Origin: Bdellovibrionales bacterium
GTDB taxonomy: Bacteria; Bdellovibrionota; UBA1018; CAIMNF01
Reading direction: 5' to 3'
Assembly: GCA_040380025.1 (NCBI GenBank)
Contig: JBEIJY010000040.1
Span: forward strand, 1-14,340
DNA length: 14,340 nt
Shown one piece after another: positions 1 through 14,340 of this stretch; the first letter of the stretch is position 1; the number at the start of each line of letters is the position of its first letter. The notes under the pieces are model-generated. The model was not told where the DNA came from. It worked only from the letters and a program-made list of their open reading frames with translations, and searched no databases. Made by a program: the position numbers and the translations under genes.

Positions 1-1683
1 GACCTTGGTTTTTTCTTCGGCAGGGACTTTCTCGGCGCGTTCTTTCAGGGTTTTCTCGATCGAGTAGATTAGCCCGTCCAGGGTGTTCCGTGCGTTGACG
101 ACCTGCTTGCGCTTCTCGTCTTCGCTCTTGTGCTCTTCTGCCTCGCGCTGCATGCGCTTGATCTCTTCTTCGCTAAGACCGCTCGAAGCCGTGATCTTGA
201 TCGACTGCTCTTTGCCGGTTCCGAGGTCTTTTGCGCCGACGTGAACGATCCCGTTCGCGTCGATGTCAAAAGTCACCTCGATTTGCGGCATTCCGCGCGG
301 AGCCGCGGGAATTCCCACGAGGTCAAAGCGTCCGAGCGACTTGTTGTGCTCGGCGAACTCGCGCTCACCCTGCAAGCAGTGGATGGTCACGGCGGTCTGG
401 CTGTCGGCCGCGGTCGAGAACACCTGGGACTTCTTGGTCGGGATGGTGGTGTTTTTTTCGATGAGCTTCGTGAACACTCCGCCCATGGTCTCGATTCCGA
501 GAGAGAGGGGAGTGACATCGAGAAGAAGCACGTCCTTCACTTCGCCCTTCAGGACTCCGCCTTGGATGGCGGCGCCCACAGCGACGACTTCATCGGGGTT
601 CACGCCCTTGTGGGGTTCTTTGCCGAAGATCTCTTTTACTTTTGCCTGAACGCGCGGCATGCGGGTCATCCCGCCGACCAGGATCACCTCGTCGATTTTG
701 TCCTTCGTGAGGCCGGCATCTTTCAGTGCGGTCTCGCAAGGACCTGCAAGCGCCTGAATGAGCGGGTCAACGAGTTGCTCAAGCTTCGAGCGCGAGAGCT
801 TCAGGTTCAGGTGTTTCGGGCCCGAGGCATCGGCAGTGATGAACGGCAGATTGATGTCGGTTTCGACCATCGACGAGAGCTCATGCTTCGCTTTCTCGGC
901 CGCTTCCTTCAGGCGCTGGAGCGCCATTTTGTCCTGAAGCAGGTTGATGCCGGATTCTTTTTTGAACTCGTCTGCGATCCAGTCGATGATCTTCTGGTCG
1001 AAGTTCCCGCCGCCCAAAAAGGTGTCGCCGTTCGTTGCTTTGACTTCGAATACGCCGTCGCCGAGTTCCAACACCGACACGTCAAAGGTACCGCCGCCCA
1101 GGTCAAATACGGCGATGGTCATGTTCTTGCCTTGCTTGTCGAGGCCGTAGGCCAGGGCTGCGGCAGTCGGCTCGTTGATGATCCGCTTGACTTCGAGGCC
1201 CGCGATGCGGCCCGCGTCTTTGGTGGCCTGGCGCTGGGCATCGTTGAAGTAGGCCGGTACGGTCACAACGGCTTCGGTCACCGGTTCGCCCAAGTAGTCC
1301 TCGGCGGTTTTCTTCATTTTTTGGAGCACCATCGCGGAGATTTCCTGCGGAGCGTACTCGCGGTCGCCGACTTTCACCCAAGCGTCGCCGTTCTTGGCTT
1401 CTTGCACCTTGAAGGGCGTGACTTTCACGAATTCAGTGACTTCTTTTGAGTTGAACTTGCGGCCGATCAGGCGCTTCACTTCAAAAAGGGTTTTATCGGG
1501 GTTCGTGACGGCCTGGCGCTTTGCAGACTGACCCACGACTTTCTCGCCGTTCGGGAGGAATCCCACGATCGAGGGGGTGGTATTCGCGCCCTCGGCGTTT
1601 GCGATCACTTTCGGTTCGCCGCCTTCCAGCACAGAGACGCACGAGTTCGTGGTTCCCAAGTCAATTCCAATGATTTTTCCCAT
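1..1683 (-). CDS. dnaK: Molecular chaperone DnaK (Hsp70); 3' end lies outside the window
   Basis: Not in the ORF track because it runs off the edge; translated by hand from the ATG at 1683 (SD AGGAG upstream). Sequence reads [32 protein letters not shown]..., and contains [45 protein letters not shown] and [17 protein letters not shown], all Hsp70 signatures. Confidence 0.99.
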
Positions 1684-1761
1684 AATTTCTCCTTACTAAT
1701 ATGAACTGAGTCGTAAATGAATCTTTTCCCATAATCGTTAATGGGAAGGGTTCAGGGTTTG

Positions 1762-2295
1762 TCAAACAATCGAATTCGTTTTAGGGCCTGCCGAGAGCAA
1801 AACCCGCGCGGGGCGCAGAAGGCGTCCGTGCAGGGTGTAGCCCCGTTGTTGCTCCTGGACGATCGTGCCGGCCGGGAGGTCGTTCGGGAGCTGGCCCACG
1901 GCCTCATGAAGGTCGGGGTTGAAGGCCTGGCCCGAAGTCGGAATCGCAGCAACGCCCTGTTTTTCGAGGGTGGCTTTGAATTGCTGCGAGACCATTTTGA
2001 TGCCATCGACCAGGGCCGGGTCGGCATCGGGTTTCGCGAACAGGAGCGCGCGCTCGAAGTTGTCGAGGATCTCGAGCAAATCGAGAGCCGTGTTCTTCCA
2101 GCCGAATTTCGCGGCTTCTTGTTGCTCGCGGATTGCGCGCTTTTTGAAGTTCTCGAATTCGGCGTAGAGATAAATGTGCTTTTGCTCGGCGTCCTTCAGG
2201 CGCTTTTCGAGCTCGGCCACGGGGGTGGCCTGGGCTTCGGGCACTACGGATTCCGGAGCGGTTTGCTCGGGTGCGGGATTGGGTTGATCTTGCAT
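1762..2295 (-). CDS. grpE: Nucleotide exchange factor GrpE (177 aa)
   Basis: Motifs YLYAEFENFKKR, LLEILDNFERAL, FNPDLHEA and GYTLHGRLLRPARV; lies directly upstream of dnaK. Start taken at MQDQPN (ATG 2295) because the longer ORF start runs through a repeat element. Confidence 0.97.
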   Translation of the reverse strand: MQDQPNPAPEQTAPESVVPEAQATPVAELEKRLKDAEQKHIYLYAEFENFKKRAIREQQEAAKFGWKNTALDLLEILDNFERALLFAKPDADPALVDGIKMVSQQFKATLEKQGVAAIPTSGQAFNPDLHEAVGQLPNDLPAGTIVQEQQRGYTLHGRLLRPARVLLSAGPKTNSIV

Positions 2296-2305
2296 GATCC
2301 GCTCA

Positions 2306-2335
2306 ATATGGTGCGGGTTTGCGAGTTGGCAAGGG
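2306..2335 (-). promoter_or_regulatory. Putative sigma32/RpoH-type heat-shock promoter of grpE-dnaK
   Basis: Minus strand CCCTTG(CC)-N14-CACCATAT matches the CTTGAA-N13/14-CCCCATNT consensus and spacing, directly upstream of grpE. Confidence 0.55.
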
Positions 2336-2340
2336 GGCGA

Positions 2341-2570
2341 GTTGGAATTTTTTGCAATCGCACGCTTTGGCTGTTCTTTTCTAGGCGGGAAATGGGGAAA
2401 GACCCTTGGAATAATTCCGTTTTTACCTCCGAGCCGCGTCGTGCGGCCTCGCTTTCGCGTTCGCCTACGCGTCCTGCTCCGGCGTGCGATGCACCACACG
2501 CCTCGGCTCATGCCTCGGCGTCACGCGCTCGCGAGAGACAGCCAAAGCGTACCGGTTGAAAAATTCCAGC
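2341..2570. repeat. Palindromic repeat element, copy 1 (arms 2341-2374 and 2538-2570; shared core 2426-2537)
   Basis: GTTGGAATTTTTTGCAATCGCACGCTTTGGCTGT is an imperfect reverse complement of ACAGCCAAAGCGTACCGGTTGAAAAATTCCAGC. The core CCTCCGAGCCGCGTCGTGCGGCCTCGCT...CTCGCGAGAG aligns with 12671-12780 over its length and with the ends of 6999-7052. Confidence 0.9.
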
Positions 2571-2581
2571 GAGCCTCTCGC

Positions 2582-5500
2582 TCACTTCAACAGCCGCGAG
2601 CAGGTGTCGCGATCGAGCTCCTGAAGCCGCGTCTTCACCGCCTCGGGCGAGTGCTCCCCGGCGAACGCCGACCGCGCCTCGGGGCTCATCGCCTCGACCT
2701 CGGCCTTGACCTCGAGGAATCGCTTGCCCGAGATCTCGCCATGCTGAAGAAGCTCATGCGCGACCTTGTATTCGAGCGTCCAGTTCTCGACGATGAAGTC
2801 GCGCGCCCGTTCGCGTGCAATCGAAAGTTCCCGGCTGGCGAAGTCCTGAAACAGCTTCTGCTGGGACTCATTAAAGACCGCATTCCCCTGATCATCGAGC
2901 TTCGCACCCATGAGCTCGGGCACGAGGCCCCACTGGGTCGCGGCACGGGTCAAGAGTCTGCGCTCTTCCAAAAGATCTCCCGCCTGGCCCGAGTTCATCT
3001 CGCGGCCCACCAAAAGCTCGGCCTCCGAGCCCGCGACCAGAGTCGCAAGCCGCGCGCGCAGGTCGCTCAGGGTGAAATTCGTCTTGAAGTTCGGGATGTC
3101 CTCGTAGCGCGCATATCCCAGGTAATGATCCGCGGGTACGATTGTCAGGTGCGCAAGCTTGCGCCCCGAGGTAGCCGGGTTGTTCAAAATGGCATGCCCC
3201 GCCTCATGAAAAGCCGTGGCGTAGGCATCAACGAGGCGAATCTGCTTGATGAATTTTGCCGATCGCGTGAAGTCCGACTCGACCCGCGTGATCTCGGCAC
3301 CATCCTGATGCACCGAAACGATGAGCTTTGCGAGCGTTTCATCGGGGGTGACCTCATAAAACGGCTGGGTCGGGATTTTGGTTTCGAGCGAGAGCTTCAC
3401 GAGTGCTCGGTTGCTCATGGTCGCTTTCGTGAAGTCCACCTCGAACACTCCTTGCGAGGCGGCCGAGCCGAGTGTGGTGTTCACAAAATTGATCACCGAG
3501 CGCGCGCCCTCGGTCGAAGAGTAGGTGAGGCGGCTCACCGTCTCGATGAAGTTCCCATCGTACAGAATCCGCACGGGTTGCTTTGCCTCGACCCGCGCAA
3601 TCCACTCGTTGACGAGTTTTTTCACGATCGCGGCTTTCGTGGTCGAAACCGGTGGTTCGGTCAGGACCACCGCACCCAGGCGCCCGACAAATGCGGGACT
3701 GAGCCCGCTTTCGCGAAGAAGCGCGCGCGCTCTTTCTTCAGAGCTGTAGCGGCTCCAGATCGCGCGGAGCATGTCGTCCTGAGTGTTCCCGGCAAAAACC
3801 TTCTCGGCCTCGTTGCCGGTGAAGATGAACACATAGTCCTTGAGAGGATAGGATTTTTTGGTGACCGGGCTGACCCAAACGCCATCATCCAAAATGGAGT
3901 AAAGGTATTTTCCGATTTCCTCTTTGGCGTTCTTGTCATTCCCGCCCGCGTTCCCCATCTCGTCAAACAGAATGACGCCTTTCGGGTAGCGCTGAAGAAA
4001 ACGCTCGAACTGCCCGGGCTGGTCGGATCCCACATAGCCCACCGAGGACTGAAAAATGTTCGAGAGGTCTTTCACGCTGCTGACCTGACCCATCTCGAGC
4101 TTGCAGAGGTATTCGGCCGACCCGAAGCGCACCATCGCAAGGGCCCGCGCCATCTCGGTCTTGCCGTTTCCGGTCATTCCGAGGGCGTAGATCGAAACAG
4201 GCTTCGGCGATCCGGCGTCGACCGCATTTTTGCGGATGCTCTCGGCGAGTTTTTTGGCATAAAAGCTCTGCCCGTACACGCGCGCGTTCAGCTCGGCTTC
4301 GAGGGTCTTCAGGATTTGCCGCTCGGAGGGGTCAAAGAGCGCGTTCTCGTAAGCGAGCTTCGGACCGAGCAGGGTCATCGACTGCGAGCGTTCGTTCACG
4401 GCCTGAAACTGCACAAAGCTCGTTCCCGCCATCGGGGGGAGGGTCTTGATCGCGATTTTTTTGGCCGGTCCGAATTCCTTGATGTGCGCATCGTACACGC
4501 GCGCAATGTGGTTCCGGATGTTCCGCTCAAGCTCGCGAACGCCGTAAACGGGATCATAGCTCTCGTTCACGATCGTATTCACGAAGGTCTCATCGACCGT
4601 CACCTCGCCCAGCCCCTGGTCGCGGTAGGTCTCAATCTCGTCGCGCACCTTGATGCGGGCGATGTCGAGCGCGGTTTCTTTCAGAATCGGCGCAACGAGG
4701 ATCATCTCGTCCATACGCGAGAGGATCTCGGGCTTCAGCACCTCGTCAGCGCGGGCGAAGGATTCCTGCTGGATGAAGGCCTCTTTGATGTCGTTTGCCG
4801 AAACCGTAAGAAGCCGCTTTTGGATTTCTTGCAAGGTCGCGGTCTTCACGAACTCGGGCGGGAAGAACTTTGTGGCACCCTTGTTCGAGGTGAAGAGCCA
4901 GAGCACGCGGCCGGTCGTGCGCATTCTGCCGTCGCCCGGAATGAAGGAGCCGGTGTCGATGATCTCCATCAGGCGCTCGACTTGCTGGGGGTGCATTTTA
5001 TCGAGCTCATCGACCAGAATGATGCTCGAGCCCTGCCCGGGGCCATCGAAGTGATTCGCAAGAAGGCCCTTGTTTTTGTCGCTTCCCAAGTAGCCCGATT
5101 TCGGCCCGAAAAGATAAAACCCGTTGTCGTCGCTCTTCAGTTGGTTTCCGTCGATTTTGAGCATGCGCGTGTGCGTGCCGTAAAAATAATGCACCAGCCG
5201 CGAGGGGATCAGGGATTTTCCGGTTCCGGTGGTGCCGACGATCACGGCGGCGCGGGTCTTTTTGCCTTTTGCCGTCATGGTGGCGGCAAAGAGGTTCACG
5301 ATGCGATCAATCGTCGCGTCCTGGCCCTTCACGTCCGACTTGATCTTGGCGCGGAGCTCGTCCATTTTGGCGATGAATCCTGCGCGGTCATGGGGCACGA
5401 CCGGAAGCCGCGCTTTTTTTGCGGCGAGTTCGTAAAACACCGCAAGCGTGAGTTCGGGGGCGCGACCGTTTGCAAGGCGGTTTGCGTAAATCGCGGCATC

Positions 5501-6814
5501 TTGCAAAAGCCTGATCGGAGCATCGGGACGCTTCAGATCGGGCATGAGATCCCCCGCGAGATCAATCGCGGCTGTGATGACCTCGTCTGATACCTTGAGC
5601 CGGTACGTGCGTTCGATGTCGGCCAGCGCCGTTTGCTTGATGAGCCCGAAGGTGGCGGCCTCGTCGAGCTCCTGGATTTGAATTGGCGTGATGCGGGTCG
5701 CGAATTGTTCTTCGGCAAGAAGCGAGAACGCGGCTTGTTTGGAGCCCGAGACCAGAATCATCGGGAAGATTCCCTCGTCGATCAGGGTCTTCAGCGTATC
5801 AAGCTGCGAGGGCAGAAGCTGGTGCGCGTTCTCGATGACGAGAATGGGGTTCGTCTCGGTCGCGCGGCCCACCTCGCGAAGGGACCGCACATACCAGTCC
5901 AAAAGACGCGCAAGGCCGCCGGATGACATATCGCGACCGATGCTTGCGATTTTTTGCGGGTTCGTGACGATCACAATCGAGTTCTTCAGCTGTTCGGAGT
6001 GGACTCCGGCCGGAAGATCGCCCTGAAGGAGGCGTGCTGCGATTCCCTCGACCACGGACGACTTGCCAACGCCAGTCTCGCCCAAAATCACGGGCGCTTT
6101 GCCCTTCAAGCGCAAGAGCACATCGATTGCGGTGTTGATCTCGGTGTCGCGTGCGACGATCGGAGTGAATTTGCCTTCGCGCTGGCGCTTTTGAATGTCC
6201 TCGGTCAGGACCACGAGCGCTCCTTGCTTCAGCTGCTCGGCTTTGTCGCTCTTCCAGGCGCCCAAAAAGCGCTGAAGGCGGATCTCTGAAATCCCCGCTT
6301 CTCGCACGACAGAAGGAGCCGCATTCGGAGTCGTGACGAGGTCTTTCAGTTCGGGGCGGGGAGTCGGGGGTACGGGGCGGGATTTGGCGGCCGCATAGCC
6401 CCGTTTTGCCGCGTCGATCATGCTCTCGATCTCGGGGTGATCGGGGTAGGAGGTTCGAAGCTCCGAGATCAGCCACTGAAAGAACACGATTTCATCGGAT
6501 ACCGAGATGCTTCCGAGCACATCCGTCCAGGCGATGATCGTCCGCGAGTCGAGCACCACGGCCTGGCTTTCGTGCAGGAGCTGTTTTCGGGCGAGGTCGT
6601 ACACCTCACGAAAATTCCGCCCCTTCAACGAGCGAATCTGCGCGAGCACATGGTCGGGATCGTTCGCGTACGAGGTGTGGCTTAAAAACTCGATCGTGGA
6701 GTTCAGTTGATCCGGATTCAGCTGGGCCAGGGCCCGTGAGCCCGAACCGGTTGAAAGGACGCTGATGGCTAAAAAAACGAAAGCGGCAAAACGAAGTTTG
6801 CGGACCGTGTTCAT
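2582..6814 (-). CDS. Signal-peptide-bearing triple AAA+ (ClpA/B-type D1-D2-D2') ATPase fused to a C-terminal FtsH-like M41 metallopeptidase (1410 aa)
   Basis: Strong SD GGAGGGGG before ATG 6814; N-terminus MNTVRKLRFAAFVFLAISVLSTGSGSRALA|Q. Walker A motifs GETGVGKS, GTTGTGKS and GMTGNGKT; Clp D2 motifs VKGQD/VYGQS, GYLG/GYVG, PEILSRMD/PAFVGRL, GVREL/GARSV. C-terminal ATAFHEAGHAIL...TIVP...LGYA...AGSEAE...SGQAGDL...WGL matches the FtsH protease domain pattern. Confidence 0.9.
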   Translation of the reverse strand: MNTVRKLRFAAFVFLAISVLSTGSGSRALAQLNPDQLNSTIEFLSHTSYANDPDHVLAQIRSLKGRNFREVYDLARKQLLHESQAVVLDSRTIIAWTDVLGSISVSDEIVFFQWLISELRTSYPDHPEIESMIDAAKRGYAAAKSRPVPPTPRPELKDLVTTPNAAPSVVREAGISEIRLQRFLGAWKSDKAEQLKQGALVVLTEDIQKRQREGKFTPIVARDTEINTAIDVLLRLKGKAPVILGETGVGKSSVVEGIAARLLQGDLPAGVHSEQLKNSIVIVTNPQKIASIGRDMSSGGLARLLDWYVRSLREVGRATETNPILVIENAHQLLPSQLDTLKTLIDEGIFPMILVSGSKQAAFSLLAEEQFATRITPIQIQELDEAATFGLIKQTALADIERTYRLKVSDEVITAAIDLAGDLMPDLKRPDAPIRLLQDAAIYANRLANGRAPELTLAVFYELAAKKARLPVVPHDRAGFIAKMDELRAKIKSDVKGQDATIDRIVNLFAATMTAKGKKTRAAVIVGTTGTGKSLIPSRLVHYFYGTHTRMLKIDGNQLKSDDNGFYLFGPKSGYLGSDKNKGLLANHFDGPGQGSSIILVDELDKMHPQQVERLMEIIDTGSFIPGDGRMRTTGRVLWLFTSNKGATKFFPPEFVKTATLQEIQKRLLTVSANDIKEAFIQQESFARADEVLKPEILSRMDEMILVAPILKETALDIARIKVRDEIETYRDQGLGEVTVDETFVNTIVNESYDPVYGVRELERNIRNHIARVYDAHIKEFGPAKKIAIKTLPPMAGTSFVQFQAVNERSQSMTLLGPKLAYENALFDPSERQILKTLEAELNARVYGQSFYAKKLAESIRKNAVDAGSPKPVSIYALGMTGNGKTEMARALAMVRFGSAEYLCKLEMGQVSSVKDLSNIFQSSVGYVGSDQPGQFERFLQRYPKGVILFDEMGNAGGNDKNAKEEIGKYLYSILDDGVWVSPVTKKSYPLKDYVFIFTGNEAEKVFAGNTQDDMLRAIWSRYSSEERARALLRESGLSPAFVGRLGAVVLTEPPVSTTKAAIVKKLVNEWIARVEAKQPVRILYDGNFIETVSRLTYSSTEGARSVINFVNTTLGSAASQGVFEVDFTKATMSNRALVKLSLETKIPTQPFYEVTPDETLAKLIVSVHQDGAEITRVESDFTRSAKFIKQIRLVDAYATAFHEAGHAILNNPATSGRKLAHLTIVPADHYLGYARYEDIPNFKTNFTLSDLRARLATLVAGSEAELLVGREMNSGQAGDLLEERRLLTRAATQWGLVPELMGAKLDDQGNAVFNESQQKLFQDFASRELSIARERARDFIVENWTLEYKVAHELLQHGEISGKRFLEVKAEVEAMSPEARSAFAGEHSPEAVKTRLQELDRDTCSRLLK

Positions 6815-6942
6815 GGAGTTCCCCCTCCGGTCAGCGACATTAGTAGCGCTCGGGGGAAAATTCAAAAGGTTTGGTTCACGGCGGTGTGAATTTTTTCTGA
6901 TAAACAAATTGAATTGAAAAACCCCCAAGTCGTTCTCTCTGT

Positions 6943-7128
6943 CTGTGCTTGATTTGGTTTCTGGATGCGGGAGTGGGCGGAAAATCATTCGGGTTTCGCC
7001 TCCGAGCCGCGTCCTGCGGCCTCGCTTGCGGCTGTCCTGCCTCGCGAGAGTCGGCGAAACAGGAATGATTCTCCACCCCCTCCCTCATCCAGTCTCATGA
7101 ATCAAGCGCAGTCAATCAGGCCAGTTTG
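6943..7128. repeat. Palindromic repeat element, copy 2 (arms 6943-7000 and 7053-7111; short core 6999-7052)
   Basis: CTGGATGCGGGAGTGGGCGGAAAATCATTCGGGTTTCGCC pairs imperfectly with GGCGAAACAGGAATGATTCTCCACCCCCTCCCTCATCCAG. The core begins CCTCCGAGCCGCGTCCTGCGGCCTCGCT and ends CTCGCGAGAGTCGG. The right end GCGCAGTCAATCAGGCCAGTTTG nearly matches the right end of copy 3. Confidence 0.9.
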
Positions 7129-7137
7129 GATTTGCCT

Positions 7138-8274
7138 CTACGAGAGCTCCCGCACGAGCGAATCGCTCATCGCGAATCCCCGCGCCGTCGCCCGAAGATG
7201 CCCCGGGCTTGTGGGGTGGGGCTCAAGGAGTCCGTGCGCAAGAAGCGTCTCGGACTTCTTCTTTTGCGCGTCGGTTTTCAGCCAGGAATCGGGGAAGCCT
7301 TCTGACAGGCGGATCGCCAGCATCCAGCGTTCGAGCTCGATTTGCGAATCGCTCAAGGTCTCGGTCCATTCGACGGGAAGGGTTTTTTCTTCGAGGAGCG
7401 CGCGCGCATACCGATGGAGCGACGAGAAGTTCTTGAACCGCGCACGGGACTCGCTCGAGTACGAGTGCGCCGACGGCCCGAACGACAAATAGGAGCCACC
7501 GGTCCAGTACACGAGGTTGTGTCGGGCACGGCCTCCGGGGCGCGCGAAGTTCGAGATCTCGTAGTGTTCAAACCCGCGTGCCTGTAAAAACGAGTCAATG
7601 AGGAGCAGGTGCTCGAGCTGTTCTTCTTCGCGCGGGAGCTCGCGGTACATGGCGTGGTGGGGCGGAAGAGTCAGAAGGTACACCGAGAGGTGCTGAATCG
7701 GAAACTCCGCGAGACGAATCAGGTGGGATTCGAGATCGGCAAGGCTCTGCCCGGGCACGCCACAGAGGAGATCGGTGGAAACATTCGAAAACCCCGAGCG
7801 AAACACCGTCTCGAGCGCCGTAAGCGCCCCTTGCTCGGAATGAACGCGTCCCAAACGAAGGAGAGTTTCGTCTTTTAAGCTCTGCACACCCATGCTGACG
7901 CGATTGATTCCAAAAGAGCGATAGGCCTTGAAGTTCTCGTACGAGATCGAAGAGGGGTTCGCTTCCATCGTCCATTCGATCGACGAAGAGAGCGGGGCAT
8001 GGGTAAGAAGAGTCTGAATGATCCGCTCCATCGAGGCGGGAGGGGTCATGCTCGGGGTCCCGCCTCCAAAAAAGATCGTCTCGATCGGGAGCGAGAGCAA
8101 GCCATCGCGCCCGCGAAGGTCAATTTCTTGTCGGAGCGCCTGCTCGAAAAGGTCCGGGTCGGAGGGTTTGGTCTTCTCGCGGCCGATCGAATAAAAGTCG
8201 CAGTAATGGCACTTGGCCTCGCAAAACGGAAAATGAAAATACAGCGATCGGGCGGGAGCGAGAGGGGAAAGCAT
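7138..8274 (-). CDS. hemW: Radical SAM heme chaperone HemW (HemN-like)
   Basis: SLYFHFPFCEAKCHYCDF (CxxxCxxC), FFGGGTPS, TMEANP, RVSMGVQS, YEISNFA and HNLVYW; HNxxYW is typical of HemW. The location upstream of grpE-dnaK is a common context. Confidence 0.9.
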   Translation of the reverse strand: MLSPLAPARSLYFHFPFCEAKCHYCDFYSIGREKTKPSDPDLFEQALRQEIDLRGRDGLLSLPIETIFFGGGTPSMTPPASMERIIQTLLTHAPLSSSIEWTMEANPSSISYENFKAYRSFGINRVSMGVQSLKDETLLRLGRVHSEQGALTALETVFRSGFSNVSTDLLCGVPGQSLADLESHLIRLAEFPIQHLSVYLLTLPPHHAMYRELPREEEQLEHLLLIDSFLQARGFEHYEISNFARPGGRARHNLVYWTGGSYLSFGPSAHSYSSESRARFKNFSSLHRYARALLEEKTLPVEWTETLSDSQIELERWMLAIRLSEGFPDSWLKTDAQKKKSETLLAHGLLEPHPTSPGHLRATARGFAMSDSLVRELS

Positions 8275-8280
8275 GGCGGG

Positions 8281-8309
8281 ATTAAACCCCGCCGAAGGGG
8301 AAGTGTCAA
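8281..8309 (-). promoter_or_regulatory. Sigma70-type promoter of hemW
   Basis: Minus strand TTGACA-N17-TTTAAT, followed by 6 nt and then the ATG at 8274. Confidence 0.7.
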
Positions 8310-8368
8310 ACCAATGGCGTGAAATCGGCGGTTTTTGCGGGAATTCCGGCGAAAAATCAATTTCTTTT

Positions 8369-8396
8369 TTGCCTTCTGTCGAAGCTTCGATACAAT
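8369..8396 (+). promoter_or_regulatory. Possible sigma70 promoter of the Cys/Gly-rich protein gene
   Basis: TTGCCT-N16-TACAAT, about 65 nt upstream of ATG 8461. Confidence 0.35.
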
Positions 8397-8460
8397 TTTG
8401 ATTGGCCCCCCTCCAGAAAAGGACTTCTGGAGCCGAAATGACATACTGAGGAGCTCGCTC

Positions 8461-10356
8461 ATGTCAAAGACCTTGAAAAGCACGATGCTGACCATCTTCG
8501 CCTTCCCTCTCTTTTTGTTTCTGGGTGTCCCGGTGGCGCAGGCGCAGAAAGAGGTGTTTAGTTGCCCGGATGGAGGGTGCTCTGTTTTCAAAGCTGGAGA
8601 TTTTTGCAAGTCAGGTGAAGAATATCGGTACATAGAGGGATGCGTTATAAAAAAGAAGAAATATGTCTTGAAGCATCGGCGCGCAACCCCGCAAGAGTTG
8701 ATCCAAGCTGGAATATATAAAGAAAATGTAACCATCGTTGATGTCGGCAAGACTACTCCGGGGCAAGGAGATAACGACAACGAAAATGGCGGTAGCGGCA
8801 ATGAAAGCTCCTGCCGGTGCCATTACTCGTGGTGTCACTACCTATGTCGGAAGAGTTCCACTGGAGTGAGTGGTGACTATTGTGAGCACCTGGAAGCAAT
8901 TGGGGATATGAAAGAGGATCGATTAAAAGATCTTAAGGGTGCCCAAAAGCCAGTAGATAGAAATAGCGATTATCTTTCGGAATGCCGAGATGCGTGCGCT
9001 ACACTTGCGCTCGACGTGAACAGCTCATGTTATTATTCAAGAAATAAAAATATTAATGAGCCAAGTGAATTTTGTCTTTATTTAACTGATACTGAAAAGG
9101 CTCAATTAAATAGTGGTTGCAACAACGTGACTGGCACAAAATCCAATAGCGATCTGTGTAATGCGATTTTGAATCATTCAAAATGCGCAAAAGAGCTCTC
9201 GGCCCTTACCACTGACAACTTCGATTGCGGTAACAATCAAGCAACCTATGCTGTGATTGATTATGCGAAAGAAAAGGTTCGAATCGAGGCTGATTATTTG
9301 TTCATTCGGGATCTAGAGGCAAGAACGAAGTGTCCATTTGATAAAGATAATCTTGAAAAAGATATTAAAACCTACACCGAAGACAAGTTCTCGGTTTCTT
9401 GTGTCCAGCAACTTGCCGAGGAGTGTTTTAATCAAACTGGCGGGAATGGTTCAGGAGACTGCGTCGACTGCGGCAACGGCGGAGGATACGACGAGTACGA
9501 AGAGATCATCCGCAGACGAGAGATCACAGAGATCTTGCGGCAACAGGGATATTGCACCTACGGTCCGTGTCCGTACGGGGTGAGCAAAGCGGCGCAGATC
9601 ATTGGCGCGATCGGCTCGATCGGGGTACCGATCGGCCTTGGAGTCATGAATCTCGTCATGAACCAGCGTGGGCTTGATGCGTGCCTTCAGGCGTACAATA
9701 TGCAGGTCCAGCAGGCGACGGCGGTTGGACTTCCCCCGCAAAATCCGATGTGCGGGATGGGCGGATTCGGCATGGGCGGTTTTGGTGGCGGCTGGGGCGG
9801 CGGATTTCCTGGCATTGGTGGCGGAATCAACATCGGCGGCGGCATCGGATTCCCCGGAATCGGCATCGGCGGCGGCATTGGGGTCGGCGGCGGTGGCGGA
9901 ATCTATGGCTATCCTGGCGGCGGCGGCGGTTGGGGCGGAGGGTTCCCGGGCGGTGGCATGTACGGATATCCGAACGTGAACATGTATGGAATTCCGACGA
10001 TCGGTGGTGGCGGCGGGATGAACATTCAGCAGCAGCTCTATGACAATCAGCTTCGCATGCAGGAGCTTGCCATGATGAACATGGTGAACCAGACCGGAGC
10101 CGGCATGGGGTATAACAACAACATGTACATGCCGGGGTACGGGACTGCTCCGTACTACGGCATGGGGAATATGGGGTACGGCTACCCAGGAATGTACTCG
10201 GGCGTGAATGCGGGTGCTGGAGTGAGCTTCAACGCAGGGGCTGGATTCAATATCGGCGCGGGTGCCGGAGCCGGCGGCGGATGGAATCCGTACGGCGGTT
10301 ATGGTGGCTACGGCGGAAACTGCGGTTACGGAGTCTCGTACCTGGGCGGGTGTTAA
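8461..10356 (+). CDS. Secreted hypothetical protein with a Cys-rich N-terminal domain and a Gly/Tyr/Met-rich low-complexity C-terminus (631 aa)
   Basis: SD GAGGAG at 8448-8453; signal peptide MSKTLKSTMLTIFAFPLFLFLGVPVAQA|Q; 28 Cys by hand count; GGF/GGI/GYPG repeats at the C-terminus. No family recognised. Confidence 0.8.
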   Translation: MSKTLKSTMLTIFAFPLFLFLGVPVAQAQKEVFSCPDGGCSVFKAGDFCKSGEEYRYIEGCVIKKKKYVLKHRRATPQELIQAGIYKENVTIVDVGKTTPGQGDNDNENGGSGNESSCRCHYSWCHYLCRKSSTGVSGDYCEHLEAIGDMKEDRLKDLKGAQKPVDRNSDYLSECRDACATLALDVNSSCYYSRNKNINEPSEFCLYLTDTEKAQLNSGCNNVTGTKSNSDLCNAILNHSKCAKELSALTTDNFDCGNNQATYAVIDYAKEKVRIEADYLFIRDLEARTKCPFDKDNLEKDIKTYTEDKFSVSCVQQLAEECFNQTGGNGSGDCVDCGNGGGYDEYEEIIRRREITEILRQQGYCTYGPCPYGVSKAAQIIGAIGSIGVPIGLGVMNLVMNQRGLDACLQAYNMQVQQATAVGLPPQNPMCGMGGFGMGGFGGGWGGGFPGIGGGINIGGGIGFPGIGIGGGIGVGGGGGIYGYPGGGGGWGGGFPGGGMYGYPNVNMYGIPTIGGGGGMNIQQQLYDNQLRMQELAMMNMVNQTGAGMGYNNNMYMPGYGTAPYYGMGNMGYGYPGMYSGVNAGAGVSFNAGAGFNIGAGAGAGGGWNPYGGYGGYGGNCGYGVSYLGGC

Positions 10357-10601
10357 GGCGTTCCTGCGTAATCATTCTGGATTCTCTTCAGGAGTTGGAG
10401 CCACAGGTGCTCTTCCTCGCGCAAAATCCAACCATTTTGAAGGGCGCGGGATTCATAGAGAGTCACTCCGTCCTGTTCAAGCGCAATCGGAGCAATTCCT
10501 GTCAAAAACACTGAGATCAACAACGGAGTCCAGGTGTGTCCGCTGATTCCCTAGCTGGAAATGATCGACCTTTAGCAACGGAAGTCGTGAATTCTCGAGG
10601 A

Positions 10602-10631
10602 TTGACAAAATCACTTGGTTTCTGGTAGTCT
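10602..10631 (+). promoter_or_regulatory. Sigma70 promoter of rpsA
   Basis: TTGACA-N18-TAGTCT with an extended -10 TG at 10623-10624. Confidence 0.6.
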
Positions 10632-10725
10632 CTCTCGGTCAGCTCAAACCTGATGTCCGAGCCATCCTCCTTGAAATGCTTTGCGTTTTTGGATGTCCGG
10701 AGTTCTCCAGTTAGGAAATCAAATC

Positions 10726-12531
10726 ATGTCCAAACTCAATACCGAAACTCCTGCTCCCAAGCAGAAGAAAAACCTTCTTTCGAACCTCAAGTGGATCGAA
10801 GAATTCAGCGATGCCGAGGGCGAACTCGTCGAGAGCCGTCCCCTGAGCGGAGCCGAAGACTTCGTGACCCTCTTTGAGAACCGCCAGAAAGACAGCGAAA
10901 TCCAGGAAGGCGCCGTGATCGACGGAAAAGTCGTGTCGATCGGCCCGGACGATGTCACTGTCGACATCGGCTTCAAATGCGAAGGGTTTGTTCCCCTTTA
11001 TGAATTCAAAGATGCGACCGGCACCGCGAAGGTGACCGTCGGCGACATCCTCTCGGTGTACGTCGAGCGCCTCGAAATCGAACAAGGCCGGATCCACCTC
11101 TCGAAAGACCGCGCCGACATCATCAAGGCGTGGGACGAGATCTCCGCCGCATGCGAACAAGACCAGCTCGTCGAAGGGATCGTGATCGCGAAGGTGAAAG
11201 GCGGCCTTGCCGTCGACATCGGCGTGAAGGCGTTCCTGCCCGGCTCCCAGCTCGACACCAAAGCGGTGAAGAACCTGGACAAGTTCATCGGCAGCCGCAT
11301 GAAGTTCAAGATCCTGAAGTTCAACAAAAAGCGCGGAAACATCGTGCTTTCCCGCAAGGCAGTTGTGGCGCACGAGCGCGAGCTCCAGCGCGCCGAGACC
11401 CTCTCGCAAATGCAAGAGGGCATGATCGTGGCCGGTACCGTGAAGAACATCACCGAGTACGGCGCGTTCATTGACCTGGGCGGAATGGATGGACTCCTCC
11501 ACATCACCGACATGTCTTGGGGCCGCATCAAGCACCCGAGCGAGCTCTTCAATGTGGGCGACGAAGTGAAAGTGAAGATCCTGAAGTACGACCGCGAAAA
11601 AGAACGCGTGTCGCTCGGACTGAAGCAGGTCTCCCCGAATCCTTGGGACGAGGCCGAATACAAGTTCCCGGTCAGCAAGGTCGTCAAAGGCAAAGTCGTG
11701 TCGCTTAAAGACTACGGCGCGTTTGTTGAGCTCGACGACGGCGTCGAAGGGCTCATTCACGTGTCCGAGATGTCCTGGACCGAGCGCGTCAAGAACCCGT
11801 CCAAGTACGTCAAAGTGGGCGACGTGGTCGAGTGCAAGGTTCTCGAAGTCGACACCCGCAACAAGCGCATCAGCCTCGGCATGAAGCAGCTGCAAGAGAA
11901 TCCTTGGGATGCTCTCGAGCTGAAATTCCCGGTCGGCGCGATTGTGGACGAGTGCGAAGTGAAGTCGATCACCGACTTCGGAATGTTCGTCGACGTCGGA
12001 ATGGGCATCGACGGCCTGATCCATGTGTCGGATCTTTCTTGGAACAAGAAGGTCGTGAACCCGTCCGAGAAGTACAAAAAGGGCGACAAGGTCAAGGCTG
12101 TGGTTCTCGGAATCGACAAGCAAGCCGAGAAGTTCTCGCTTGGAATCAAGCAGCTTGAGCGCGATCCTTGGGAAAACATCAAGTCCCGCTACCGCACCGG
12201 CCAGTCGGTCGAGGGCTTGATCACCAAGATCACCGATTTCGGTGCGTTCATGGAACTCGAAGAAGGCGTGGAAGGCCTGATCTACGTGAGCGAGCTCTCT
12301 GAGCAGCGCGTGGAGAAGCCGGCTGACGTCGTGAAGCTCGGCGAGAAAGTCCGCGCCGAGATCCTCTCGATCGAGCCGAAAGATCGCCGGATCAGCCTCT
12401 CGATCAAGCAACTCGGACGTTCGGAAGAGCGTGCGAACTACGAGACCTACATGGGCGATCGCAACAAGAAGACCTCGATGGGCGACCTCCTCGGCGACAA
12501 GCTGAAGGGTGCCCTGAAGCGCGACGAGTAA
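10726..12531 (+). CDS. rpsA: 30S ribosomal protein S1 (601 aa)
   Basis: Six S1 repeats (VDIGFKCEG, AFLPGSQLD, YGAFIDLGGMDGLLHITDMSW, GVEGLIHVSEMSW, GIDGLIHVSDLSW, GVEGLIYVSELS). ATG 10726 is preceded by AGGA; codon usage is strongly biased. Confidence 0.98.
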   Translation: MSKLNTETPAPKQKKNLLSNLKWIEEFSDAEGELVESRPLSGAEDFVTLFENRQKDSEIQEGAVIDGKVVSIGPDDVTVDIGFKCEGFVPLYEFKDATGTAKVTVGDILSVYVERLEIEQGRIHLSKDRADIIKAWDEISAACEQDQLVEGIVIAKVKGGLAVDIGVKAFLPGSQLDTKAVKNLDKFIGSRMKFKILKFNKKRGNIVLSRKAVVAHERELQRAETLSQMQEGMIVAGTVKNITEYGAFIDLGGMDGLLHITDMSWGRIKHPSELFNVGDEVKVKILKYDREKERVSLGLKQVSPNPWDEAEYKFPVSKVVKGKVVSLKDYGAFVELDDGVEGLIHVSEMSWTERVKNPSKYVKVGDVVECKVLEVDTRNKRISLGMKQLQENPWDALELKFPVGAIVDECEVKSITDFGMFVDVGMGIDGLIHVSDLSWNKKVVNPSEKYKKGDKVKAVVLGIDKQAEKFSLGIKQLERDPWENIKSRYRTGQSVEGLITKITDFGAFMELEEGVEGLIYVSELSEQRVEKPADVVKLGEKVRAEILSIEPKDRRISLSIKQLGRSEERANYETYMGDRNKKTSMGDLLGDKLKGALKRDE

Positions 12532-12555
12532 TCGTTCCCGCGAACAATTGAAACC

Positions 12556-12598
12556 AGAGGCCCCGGTCGGGAGATTCCCGCCGGGGCTTTTGTATTTT
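12556..12598 (+). terminator. Rho-independent terminator of rpsA
   Basis: Hairpin AGGCCCCGG-T-CGGGA gat TCCCG-CCGGGGCTT followed by TTGTATTTT. Confidence 0.85.
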
Positions 12599-12855
12599 CA
12601 AACTGGCCTACTTGACTGCGCATGATTTCAAAGCCCGGACGGCGAAGTGACCGAAATAAAAATGGTTTGGCCTCCGAGCCGGGTCGTCCGGCCTCGCTCT
12701 CGGTTCGCCTACGCATCCTGCTCCGGCGTGCTTCGCACCACACGCCTCGGCCTGCCTTGGCGTCCTGGCTCGCGAGAGTCGGCCAAACCATTTTTGTTTC
12801 GGGCACTTTGCCGTTCGGGCTTCCATAATTATGCGCAGTCAAGTAGGCCAGTTTG
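12599..12855. repeat. Palindromic repeat element (MITE-like or structured-RNA-like), copy 3, most intact (arms 12599-12672 and 12781-12855)
   Basis: About 75-bp near-perfect inverted arms starting CAAACTGGCCTACTTGACTGCGCAT and ending ATGCGCAGTCAAGTAGGCCAGTTTG; the 110-nt core is shared with copy 1. Confidence 0.92.
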
Positions 12856-12862
12856 TTTCATT

Positions 12863-12891
12863 TTGACTCCCCGCCACACCCCCTCTACCAT
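12863..12891 (+). promoter_or_regulatory. Sigma70-type promoter of the MFS gene
   Basis: TTGACT-N17-TACCAT, followed by 8 nt and then ATG 12900. Confidence 0.65.
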
Positions 12892-12899
12892 CGGCTTTC

Positions 12900-14051
12900 A
12901 TGAATCCTGTGATCCTGAAGGTCGGCCTCATCTCGTTCTTTGCTGATCTTTCGAGCGAGCTTCTGTACCCGATCACTCCGATTTTTTTGACGACCGTTCT
13001 TCATGCCAGCATGACCTCGGTCGGGCTGATCGAGGGCGTCGCCGAACTCACGGCAAGTTTTTTAAAAGTCTGGGCGGGAAGGCTCTCCGATCGCGCCGGA
13101 AAGCGCAGGCCCTTCGTATGGGGCGGGTACCTTGTGTCGACCCTCTCGAAGGCCTCGATCGGGCTTGCGACCTCGTGGTTCGGGGTTCTGGTGGCGCGAA
13201 GCATGGACCGGGTCGGAAAAGGCGTACGAACGGCTCCGCGAGATGCGCTGATCGCAGAATCGGTCGACAAAAGCGAGCTCGGGCTTGCCTTTGGCATTCA
13301 TCGCGGAATGGATACTCTGGGAGCCGTTCTTGGACCCTTGGCCGCTCTTGCCTTGCTTGAGTTTTACGGCACCGGGCATCTTCGGATGTTTTATCTTCTG
13401 GCGCTGTTTCCCGGAGCGTTTGCGGTCCTTCTTGCGATGAAGCTCCCCGAGGCCGCGAACTCGCGCGCGCCGGCTCTGTCGGTTCCAAAAAGCGAGAGGG
13501 CGGCACTCGCAGAACTCCCGCGCTCGTATTTTGTGTTCATGCTCGGGTGGGGGATTTTTTCATTCGTGAACTCGAGCGATGCGTTTTTGCTCCTTCGAAC
13601 ACAAGGAAACGGAAACTCCCTCGGCCACACGGTAATCATGTATTGCCTGTTCAATCTGGTATACGCGCTGTCGAGCCCGTTTTTAGGAAAACTCTCGGAC
13701 CGGATCGGAAAGCTCACCACCCTGAAGGCCTCGCTTGTGGTGTTCGCGCTCGTATACTTTGGCTTTGGATGGGGCGTAAGCCCCTGGGTGCTGTTCCCGG
13801 TGTACGGGCTCTTCATGGGAATGTCAGAGGGGGTGGGGAAGGCCCTGGTTGCCGAGCTGGTGCCGGCAGGGAGGGCGCGGGAGCTCGGGGCCACAGCACA
13901 GGGATTCTTTGGAATGGTGAGCGGGCTTTCGGCCCTGGGCGCGAGCCTCATGGCCGGAATGTTGTGGGACCGGGTGGGGCCCGAGGCGCCGTTTTACTAC
14001 GGCGGATTCGGCGCGATTCTGGCGCTGTTTGTGTTTCTTTTTTTCAGGTGA
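12900..14051 (+). CDS. MFS transporter (383 aa), substrate unknown
   Basis: Many hydrophobic helices; MFS motif A occurs twice (GRLSDRAGKRR and GKLSDRIGK); also DRVGKGVRTAPRDALI. Confidence 0.93.
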   Translation: MNPVILKVGLISFFADLSSELLYPITPIFLTTVLHASMTSVGLIEGVAELTASFLKVWAGRLSDRAGKRRPFVWGGYLVSTLSKASIGLATSWFGVLVARSMDRVGKGVRTAPRDALIAESVDKSELGLAFGIHRGMDTLGAVLGPLAALALLEFYGTGHLRMFYLLALFPGAFAVLLAMKLPEAANSRAPALSVPKSERAALAELPRSYFVFMLGWGIFSFVNSSDAFLLLRTQGNGNSLGHTVIMYCLFNLVYALSSPFLGKLSDRIGKLTTLKASLVVFALVYFGFGWGVSPWVLFPVYGLFMGMSEGVGKALVAELVPAGRARELGATAQGFFGMVSGLSALGASLMAGMLWDRVGPEAPFYYGGFGAILALFVFLFFR

Positions 14052-14065
14052 TAGGGTTTTTTCAT

Positions 14066-14142
14066 GGGCCATTAGCTCAGCTGGTTAGAGCGGTCCGCTC
14101 ATAACGGATTGGTCGCTGGTTCAAGTCCGGCATGGCCCACCA
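14066..14142 (+). tRNA. tRNA with CAT anticodon, most likely tRNA-Ile2 (lysidine-modified)
   Basis: Acceptor stem GGGCCAT/ATGGCCC, D arm AGCTCAGCTGGTTAGAGC, anticodon arm GTCCG-CTCATAA-CGGAT, T arm GGTTCAAGTCC and encoded CCA. It has a paired 1:72 position and lacks the three G-C pairs of initiator tRNA; it resembles E. coli ileX (TTGGTCGCTGGTTCAAGTCC). Confidence 0.95.
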
Positions 14143-14340
14143 AATTCAAACTGCCCCCCGAGCCTGCGCTTTCCTGGCGGCCAAAAATTTTTTCTTGGTT
14201 GATATGATTGGCATTTTTCGTGCTTTAGAACAGGCATGAAACGATGCTGCCCGAATCCCAATTGCCATTTAAGCCCTTCCCTTCTTTTGCCCCAAAAAAT
14301 CCTTGGTCCGAAATTCAAACCGATCATCAAAAAGGGGACC

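Follow-up and report, generated by a model that had tools for sequence, protein, structure and literature searches.

The window analyzed here is a stretch of 14,340 nucleotides from a Bdellovibrionales bacterium (GenBank assembly GCA_040380025.1, contig JBEIJY010000040.1, positions 1 to 14,340), whose genome of 2.35 Mb is 98% complete and in 53 contigs. On its minus strand is a gene of 1410 codons, running from an ATG at 6814-6812 to a stop codon at 2584-2582, whose predicted product combines AAA+ ATPase modules and an M41 peptidase with an N-terminal export signal. We refer to it as the AAA-M41 gene. Its features, from the ribosome site to the end of the protein, are as follows:

6821-6828, minus strand: Shine-Dalgarno site GGAGGGGG, 6 nt 5' of the ATG, read directly from the sequence
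6725-6814, minus strand: predicted Sec-type signal peptide, residues 1-30, predicted cut after A30
6170-6724, minus strand: N-terminal domain, residues 31-215, an all-helical, HEAT/ARM-like solenoid, fast-evolving
5405-6160, minus strand: AAA+ module D1, residues ~219-470, Pfam AAA_22/AAA_16, match at ~219-400
4490-5347, minus strand: AAA+ module D2, residues ~490-775, Pfam AAA/AAA_2 and ClpB_D2-small, match at ~520-771
3425-4327, minus strand: AAA+ module D3, residues ~830-1130, Pfam AAA_2, best stretch 873-1047
2606-3247, minus strand: peptidase M41 domain (FtsH-type), residues ~1190-1403, Pfam Peptidase_M41
2585-2605, minus strand: C-terminal Cys motif T-C-S-R-L-L-K (C1405), at the very end of the protein

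The first 30 residues (MNTVRKLRFAAFVFLAISVLSTGSGSRALA, with QLNPDQ next) have the parts of a Sec signal peptide of the kind cut by signal peptidase I (SPase I): an n-region, MNTVRKLR, with a net charge of +3, an uncharged h-region of 12 residues, FAAFVFLAISVL, and a polar c-region, STGSGSRALA, that places A-L-A at -3 to -1 of the predicted cut and Q after it. Our signal-peptide rule, which is home-made and crude (a 9-residue uncharged core with a mean hydropathy of at least 2.0, a basic n-region and the -3/-1 rule), is also positive. Just past the predicted cut, the net charge over residues 31-50 is -2. When the whole protein was scanned with 19-residue Kyte-Doolittle windows, the maximum was 1.56 at the N-terminus and 1.35 past residue 35; no window reaches 1.6. 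A second membrane segment is therefore absent, and for an anchor the N-terminal stretch would be short. C904 and C1405 are the sole cysteines, so there is no lipobox, and with no Cys ahead of residue 904 a lipoprotein signal (SPase II) is absent. An earlier note on this DNA (the original prediction) had described a basic n-region, a hydrophobic h-region and an A-L-A/Q cleavage motif behind a strong Shine-Dalgarno site, with a single hydrophobic segment and no lipobox Cys, and our results agree with it on each of these features, down to the coordinates 6725-6814.

We dismissed two variants of this assignment. The motif for twin-arginine translocation (Tat) is S/T-R-R-x-F-L-K; the n-region here has RKLR, and R-R is found in just 2/9 aligned N-termini (P0007 and P0008) and is not conserved. 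An upstream ATG at 6988 was rejected as the start codon, as the longer frame enters an intergenic repeat (6983-7128) and has no ribosome site.

Judged from its domain matches and motifs, the protein is three Clp-like AAA+ modules fused to an FtsH-type M41 zinc peptidase, and it is not a Clp protease. The protease and the ATPase motifs are both intact, in agreement with the ATP-dependent protease of the original prediction, so the paradox that it had raised, an ATP-dependent machine behind an export signal, is genuine. D1 has a Walker A motif, GETGVGKS (245-252), and a degenerate Walker B, I-E-N (327-329), in which the second position is N, H, Q or D in this protein and eight relatives at 63-69% identity, E or D in two relatives at 50%, and part of a D-E pair in many distant members. 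D2 has Walker A GTTGTGKS (527-534), Walker B D602-E603 and a ClpB_D2-small lid at 712-771, and D3 has Walker A GMTGNGKT (879-886) and Walker B D951-E952, with a Torsin match in Pfam at residues 835-894 (36.4 against a cut-off of 27). The motif pair of a competent AAA+ module, Walker A GxxGxGK[ST] with Walker B hhhhDE, is thus present in D2 and D3, where the motifs are invariant in 9/9 aligned proteins, and D1 has only the Walker A. The clade of the window protein is marked by this degenerate first ring (E-N, within residues 323-332) and by D-E in the other two (for D2, within residues 597-607).

The peptidase domain matches Pfam Peptidase M41 (PF01434) at residues 1199-1343 with 51.6 bits against a gathering threshold of 29.9. 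Its zinc site consists of H1203-E-A-G-H1207 and D1280, corresponding to HEXXH and a downstream Asp, which we take to be the zinc ligands of M41 peptidases. These residues are invariant in alignments A1 and A2, and they align with the HEAGH and the Asp of N-D-I in the FtsH of the same genome. As read from these motifs, three Hsp100-type rings fused to M41 are a new domain architecture, one in which the fused M41 domain makes a separate peptidase unnecessary.

Between the signal peptide and D1 is a domain that has diverged much faster than the remainder, with ~35% identity where whole proteins are 66-68% and the C-terminal half ~75% identical. An AlphaFold2 model of it, made with a six-sequence alignment, is all-helical with a mean predicted local distance difference test score (pLDDT) of 77.6 and ~90 over the first 120 residues. 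VIA-align gave Z scores of 9-10 for this model against HEAT/ARM solenoids (PSMD2, importin-beta and HspBP1), which is middling for helical repeats. Foldseek found no match for the model at E<=0.001, and Pfam had none for residues 31-215. The ESM Atlas search returned scores of up to 0.84 that can be taken as leads only, including one weak lead to Clp_N at 0.82, below the trusted level.

Among curated family models, none covers the AAA-M41 protein: its NCBIfam scores are far below the cut-off for FtsH (TIGR01241, 45.9 bits against 600), ClpB (TIGR03346, 229.6 against 1232), ClpA (TIGR02639, 222.9 against 993) and ClpV (TIGR03345, 226.3 against 885). Among solved structures, the rings are closest to ClpB, ClpC, Hsp104, Plasmodium HSP101 and human CLPB, and the peptidase is closest to FtsH and Yme1. 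The same genome also encodes a ClpB of the ordinary kind, a ClpA-like protein and an FtsH, so the AAA-M41 protein is additional to these and not a replacement.

The protein resembles FtsH, Yme1 and the m-AAA proteases in that an M41 domain with HEXXH and Asp directly follows an AAA+ module in one chain, and it would be expected to share the mechanism of FtsH, which is ATP-driven unfolding into a zinc-protease chamber. In FtsH, two N-terminal transmembrane helices flank a periplasmic domain; the AAA-M41 protein instead has one hydrophobic stretch of 12 residues within a cleavable-looking signal peptide. Where FtsH has one classic AAA module, the AAA-M41 protein has three of the Clp/Hsp100 type (AAA_2 with a ClpB D2-small lid), and its M41 domain is only 24% identical to the FtsH of the same genome. 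One Yme1 structure (6az0) is among the M41 matches; the catalytic side of Yme1 faces the intermembrane space, the counterpart of the periplasm. The likeness to ClpB, ClpA and ClpV extends over both of their rings, to which D1 and D2 align, and includes the D2-small lid and the best matches to solved structures, whereas the third ring, the covalently fused peptidase and the signal peptide are peculiar to the AAA-M41 protein in this comparison, and it has no Pfam match to Clp_N (PF02861).

Some AAA+ proteins that work behind a targeting signal are also among the matches. Plasmodium HSP101, part of the Plasmodium translocon of exported proteins (PTEX; structures 6e10 and 6e11), is a ClpB-like AAA+ protein with a signal peptide that works outside the cytoplasm of its producer, at the interface with the host cell. 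It differs from the AAA-M41 protein in being eukaryotic, in having two rings and no protease, in being part of a membrane translocon and in having ATP in its compartment; no PTEX-like partners were found here. Human CLPB/Skd3, found in the mitochondrial intermembrane space, matches D3 (structures 7ttr and 7us2), and the torsins, found in the lumen of the endoplasmic reticulum, are represented by the Torsin match in the D3 region. Both are AAA+ proteins behind a targeting signal and neither has a fused protease, but their compartments import ATP, and the bacterial periplasm has no such known supply. By its sequence, the AAA-M41 protein would work like a known kind of machine, the AAA+ protease, and it is set apart by its architecture, its signal peptide and its Cys motif.

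In a word-indexed search, the full-length relatives numbered only eight (63-69% identity), and after a gap the next matches were ClpV and ClpB. All eight have a basic-hydrophobic-AxA N-terminus whose sequence is not conserved, and conservation begins right past the predicted cut. A signal peptide is also present in two metagenomic relatives at 50% identity and in relatives at ~30% identity from other families of the order (L016 and L018), which have different N-domains and two or three rings, so the export signal is kept by homologues over this whole range. One apparent exception, P0005, is a miscalled start: at its locus (L001), a TTG after GGAAGGGGAG restores the full signal peptide. Another locus, L012, encodes an ordinary ClpB and was dropped from the relatives.

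A set of 1.84 billion representatives was searched with alignment A2, a profile of D3 and the M41 domain. Of the 150 best representatives at 50% identity, about 140 span the whole profile, and they are mostly 1000-1650 aa long, so the protein is no isolated case and belongs to a large family in Bdellovibrionota. The signal rule is positive for 11/11 close relatives at 50-69% identity and for 85/112 family representatives of at least 1000 aa (92/112 if the core may begin up to residue 60), as opposed to 0/112 ClpB/ClpV controls, and the signal-like N-terminus is thus not a chance feature. Most of the 20 negatives are probably truncated calls, because most start with a residue other than Met or with what appears to be the tail of a signal peptide. 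Among the 102 rule-positive members, the median net charge of the 15 residues past the uncharged stretch is -1, and in 91 of them the N-flank is more positive than the C-flank; the positivity of the N-flank is partly imposed by the rule, the negativity of the C-flank is not. A lipobox regular expression matches 9/112 representatives, of which ~4 are convincing by eye (P0154, P0156, P0172 and P0239), and such signals are sensible only outside the cytoplasm.

Walker B motifs were scanned by ring in 102 members. The penultimate ring mostly has N-E, the commonest combination is DE/NE/DE, and the last module before the peptidase has a canonical Walker A and D-E in most of them. Members with names come from Bdellovibrionales or Oligoflexia metagenome-assembled genomes (MAGs) and from "Proteobacteria bacterium SG_bin7". 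Our full-text search found no exported bacterial AAA+/M41 protease described for Bdellovibrio-like bacteria, with most subscription journals outside its reach, and as far as that search shows the large AAA-M41 family is undescribed.

The family is also poor in cysteine. Of 157 proteins examined, the family counts here use the 140 in which HExxH lies 150-300 residues before the end. Past residue 35, the family median is 1 Cys in ~1291 aa, compared to a median of 6 in 891 aa for ClpB/ClpV. In a naive set of 1787 open reading frames (ORFs) from the source genome, a Cys content at or below that of the AAA-M41 protein (0.145%) was found in 3/135 long ORFs without a signal or membrane segment and in 8/46 signal-bearing ones. 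The cysteine depletion of the family and the lipoprotein-type signals of a few members are thus two independent lines that agree with export.

Nearly all members keep one cysteine at the C-terminus: 136/140 have a Cys within the last 35 residues, usually 4-15 residues from the end, in a motif with the consensus C-x-x-[LAIVF]-[LFYM], and in 74/140 it is the only Cys past residue 35. By comparison, only 5/111 ClpB/ClpV proteins have any Cys in their last 35 residues. A cysteine switch that latches the zinc of the protease is unlikely as a general explanation, because the same motif is found on proteins that are not proteases and at N-termini. Exosortase, rhombosortase and MYXO-CTERM signals are known types of C-terminal sorting signal, and we set them aside, as the 4-15 residues that follow the Cys are polar and form no membrane helix. 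The terminal Cys probably serves export, tethering or assembly rather than catalysis. In the literature open to our search, which left most subscription journals outside, we found no such Cys motif described in Bdellovibrio-like bacteria.

The motif is not confined to this family. Among the naive ORFs of the source genome, 20 have C..LL within their final 25 residues, where its internal frequency would predict 4.8. When the pattern was widened slightly, 16/20 ORFs with the C-terminal motif had a signal-like N-terminus, by a permissive rule that flags 655/1787 ORFs. In another 21 signal-bearing ORFs, the motif falls within ~20 residues past the signal, ~14 of these being convincing by eye, with examples such as ...ARA/QDHSCNELL and ...SQA/QSNPDCSDLL. 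The single-Cys motif looks like an undescribed terminal tag of exported proteins. In the form C-[S/N/A/D]-x-L-L it is found, at either end, in ~28 signal-peptide proteins of this 2.35-Mb genome, most of which are without a Pfam match and contain just 1-2 cysteines in total. Their loci (L044-L051) include C29:24699-29795, with four tandem paralogs, and C34:773-3208, with two; others are at C10:58494-62246, C2:147932-151231 and C35:5328-8603.

Three motif proteins (P0278, P0279 and P0281) have Pfam matches. P0278 has two AAA modules, with D-E in both, a tail reading ...KPCDFLLRK... and a signal peptide at an internal start, MRKHFVVLGLVVSFFVSFQAES/A. P0279, which adjoins it downstream, combines a signal peptide with a single AAA module, and its tail reads ...SCSDLLKGEKKDD. 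The two are adjacent at C1:93956-97917 (L047:457-4418), and there is no protease domain in either. We inspected 13 loci with matches to P0278 in other Bdellovibrionota genomes, 11 of which have signal-like N-termini (by eye); among these 11, a Cys is located near the C-terminus in 8 and is missing in 2, and the remaining 1 is truncated at a contig end. The other 2/13 are ordinary ClpA-like proteins with no signal. P0281 combines PIN with a PhoH ATPase, its signal peptide being followed by NVCDDLL and then the PIN domain. It is encoded at C38:17279-18838 (L052:780-2339), with relatives at L001:2660-4183 and L002:2787-4358, both on the minus strand; such PIN-PhoH proteins are of the PhoH2 RNase/helicase type, which is normally cytoplasmic, and in the relatives the gene is ~4 kb from the AAA-M41 gene.

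In three related loci (L001:1700-14500, L002:1800-14600 and L009:760-9530), the genes around the AAA-M41 gene make up what could be called a secretome island: almost every product has a signal peptide together with a terminal Cys motif, and among them the PIN-PhoH protein alone has a Pfam match. When the ORFs from 26 loci were clustered, just one recurrent neighbor family was found, at 6/26 loci, so there is no obligatory operon partner. This family is an unassigned protein that has a signal peptide and, at one end or the other, the Cys motif. An FGE-sulfatase domain forms the end of one member, and among the AAA-M41 representatives P0190 (2327 aa) also includes such a domain as a fusion. The recurrent neighbor family is located at:

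L024:12459-15629
L025:4915-6462
L028:4377-6443
L038:5921-7795
L041:497-15995

Taking this evidence together, we consider it likely that the AAA-M41 protein crosses the inner membrane by means of its export signal, because of the signal itself with its short h-region and charge pattern, the depletion of cysteine and the company that the protein keeps. The signal peptide is probably cleaved. Our favored explanation, to which we give a probability of about 0.5, is that the protein is exported and cleaved and is a soluble ring protease working where ATP is, likeliest in the prey or at the junction with it. The cleavable Sec signal would take the precursor across the inner membrane, and the mature protein, of ~152 kDa, would be soluble. 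Its N-domain would be the probable receptor for substrates or partners, and the rapid divergence of that domain would suit meetings with foreign or variable partners. By homology, the ring would unfold proteins with ATP and thread them through its stacked rings into its own M41 chamber, resulting in a self-contained degradation machine like FtsH or ClpAP with no membrane anchor.

The intact ATPase motifs suggest that the protein needs to work where ATP is present. The likeliest site would be the prey contents or the junction with the prey, reached by a second secretion step, and we favor the prey because the conservation of the ATPases calls for ATP, because the exported PIN-PhoH protein has no obvious substrate in the periplasm, because the phylum is known for predators and because the source genome has five secretin genes. 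That the protein acts on the contents of another cell, as the effector in prey that the original prediction had suggested, is, taken by itself, a claim that we hold tentatively and at somewhat less than even odds. A 2025 review (PMC12428579) presents a current model for epibiotic Bdellovibrio, with a junction that gives access to the cytoplasm of the prey and is the route by which lytic enzymes leave. According to this review, the ways in which the enzymes of Bdellovibrio-like bacteria get to the prey contents and dismantle them are still largely unknown.

Several points weigh against this explanation. The textbook view is that ATP is generally absent from the periplasm and the exterior. A search for the ATP/ADP translocase PF03219 in the source genome gave no match, and it is uninformative, as control genomes were also without matches. 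The sheath of a type VI secretion system (PF05943) was not found in this 98%-complete genome and no dedicated delivery system was identified, and a protein of ~152 kDa, or a ring of ~0.9 MDa, would have to cross the outer membrane and the prey envelope. The catalytic Glu of D1 is lost in the close clade. The AAA-M41 gene adjoins grpE and dnaK, which are cytoplasmic proteostasis genes. The family is widespread but patchy, being present in 39/401 sampled Bdellovibrionota genomes and 29/204 genera, and in the genus of the source organism 3/14 other genomes have a member. Lastly, the organism is an uncultured freshwater MAG for which predation is inferred from the phylum only.

Much of the same evidence could also be accommodated by a protein that is exported and kept in the envelope of its producer, either free in the periplasm or held by an uncleaved inner-membrane anchor with the N-terminus in and the bulk out, as in Yme1. 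Its role in that case would be to break down or remodel proteins of the envelope, either with ATP that enters the periplasm at the time of feeding or, in part, independently of ATP. The evidence for translocation is the same in both cases, the M41 domain matches Yme1 (6az0) as well as FtsH, the few lipoprotein-type signals in the family imply tethering to the envelope, and no dedicated delivery system for so large a protein was identified. We consider this unlikely, while counting it as a serious alternative. An anchor is disfavored by an h-region of just 12 residues followed by helix-breaking S/T/G and A-L-A, with no window of at least 1.6, so that cleavage is favored over anchoring. The strict conservation of Walker A and B in D2 and D3 argues that ATP hydrolysis is needed, in a periplasm that is not known to hold ATP, and an exported PIN-PhoH RNase/helicase would have no obvious substrate there. 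A problem with ATP would not arise at all if the protein were never translocated, its N-terminus being a leftover or a membrane tether for a cytoplasmic bulk, as in FtsH, and the protein being one more cytoplasmic quality-control protease. It is general knowledge that all characterized bacterial AAA+ proteases act on the cytoplasmic side, and the position beside grpE and dnaK would fit such a role. That neighborhood is not conserved, however: it is absent from L001, L002 and L009, and in relatives nearly every neighbor encodes a protein with a signal peptide. From the distribution of charges, an orientation with the N-terminus in and the C-terminus out is predicted, and the hydrophobic stretch lacks the length of a membrane-spanning helix. 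The cysteine depletion fits exported proteins, as do the lipoprotein-type signals of some members, and four different ATPase families would need to have gained the same kind of N-terminus with no function. We therefore regard a cytoplasmic location as highly unlikely.

We give very little weight to the idea that the protein is exported with AAA+ rings that no longer turn over ATP and that, placed ahead of an extracellular zinc protease, act as a scaffold or as a holdase that needs no ATP. The degenerate Walker B of D1 in the close clade (I-E-N) points in that direction, as does the second module of the majority of the 102 distant members, which has N-E instead of D-E, but the module adjoining the peptidase keeps a canonical Walker A and D-E in most members, and in D2 and D3 both D-E and the remaining motifs are invariant across the 9 aligned proteins, which would be unexpected in a dead ATPase. 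It is scarcely credible that the start is misannotated and that translation begins downstream of the hydrophobic segment, with no signal peptide made, which the original prediction had raised as one of the ways in which it could fail. An in-frame GTG (V55) and later starts exist, but the strong Shine-Dalgarno site is 6 nt before the ATG at 6814 and none is seen before V55. A purine-rich Shine-Dalgarno site is directly 5' of the signal-coding start in 3/3 loci read as DNA (the window, L001 and L002). The frame is open and hydrophobic at this position in all relatives, and residues 33-54, which are past the cut site and ahead of V55, are conserved.

Returning to the favored explanation of an exported, soluble protease, it can be extended into a broader proposal that we regard as distinctly unlikely in its full form: that Bdellovibrionota export a set of cytoplasm-type enzymes marked by a Sec signal and a single-Cys motif, which are held by a disulfide and are reduced and released in the prey. 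The members would be the three-ring AAA+ zinc protease, the two-ring and one-ring AAA+ unfoldases and the PIN-PhoH RNase/helicase, with the motif C-[S/N/A]-x-L-L located at one terminus or the other of the mature protein. In the oxidizing envelope, the lone Cys would form a disulfide with a carrier or partner; the prey cytoplasm would reduce this bond, freeing degradation machines that run on the ATP of the victim.

To our knowledge, bacterial AAA+ proteases are taken to be strictly cytoplasm-facing, since the periplasm and the exterior lack ATP, and the predicted location of the AAA-M41 family contradicts this rule. If these proteins are truly exported, then either there is a source of ATP outside the cytoplasm of the producer, or self-contained machines for unfolding and degradation are sent into other cells, in which case they would run on the ATP of the victim. 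Either outcome would change how prey digestion by Bdellovibrio-like bacteria is viewed. If the proposal of an exported set is correct, it would bring to light a new class of effector in bacteria, along with a new signal for sorting or tethering, and the shared single-Cys terminal motif provides a handle for defining that set and for seeking its receptor.

Around the AAA-M41 gene, a radical-SAM gene is located upstream, and the following features are located downstream, all on the minus strand:

2568-2586, minus strand: terminator-like hairpin overlapping the stop codon (2582-2584), T-run next, a pattern match only
2305-2335, minus strand: sigma-32-like promoter site CTTGCCA-N13-CACCATAT, 5' of grpE, our own reading
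2295-1762, minus strand: grpE (Pfam GrpE), directly downstream of the AAA-M41 gene
1683-1, minus strand: dnaK, downstream of grpE

No operator of the controlling inverted repeat of chaperone expression type (CIRCE/HrcA) was found in the window at up to 3 mismatches. We dropped heat-shock regulation of the AAA-M41 gene and its co-transcription with grpE and dnaK, because the gene has its own terminator-like hairpin and grpE its own promoter-like site. An intergenic repeat with inverted-repeat ends flanks the AAA-M41 gene at 2349-2563 and 6983-7128 and occurs again at 12599-12855; the 257-nt copy gives 79 BLAST segments on 32/53 contigs. The flanking copies could bear on the patchy distribution of the gene. 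A plus-strand ORF at 1741-2559, longer than grpE and overlapping it, is probably spurious. Another plus-strand ORF, at 8335-10356, encodes 673 aa with no Pfam match; it has a stretch of low GC content (0.445 around 8500-9500, compared to ~0.58 elsewhere) and a Gly-rich repetitive part with GGC-rich direct repeats at ~9780-9945.

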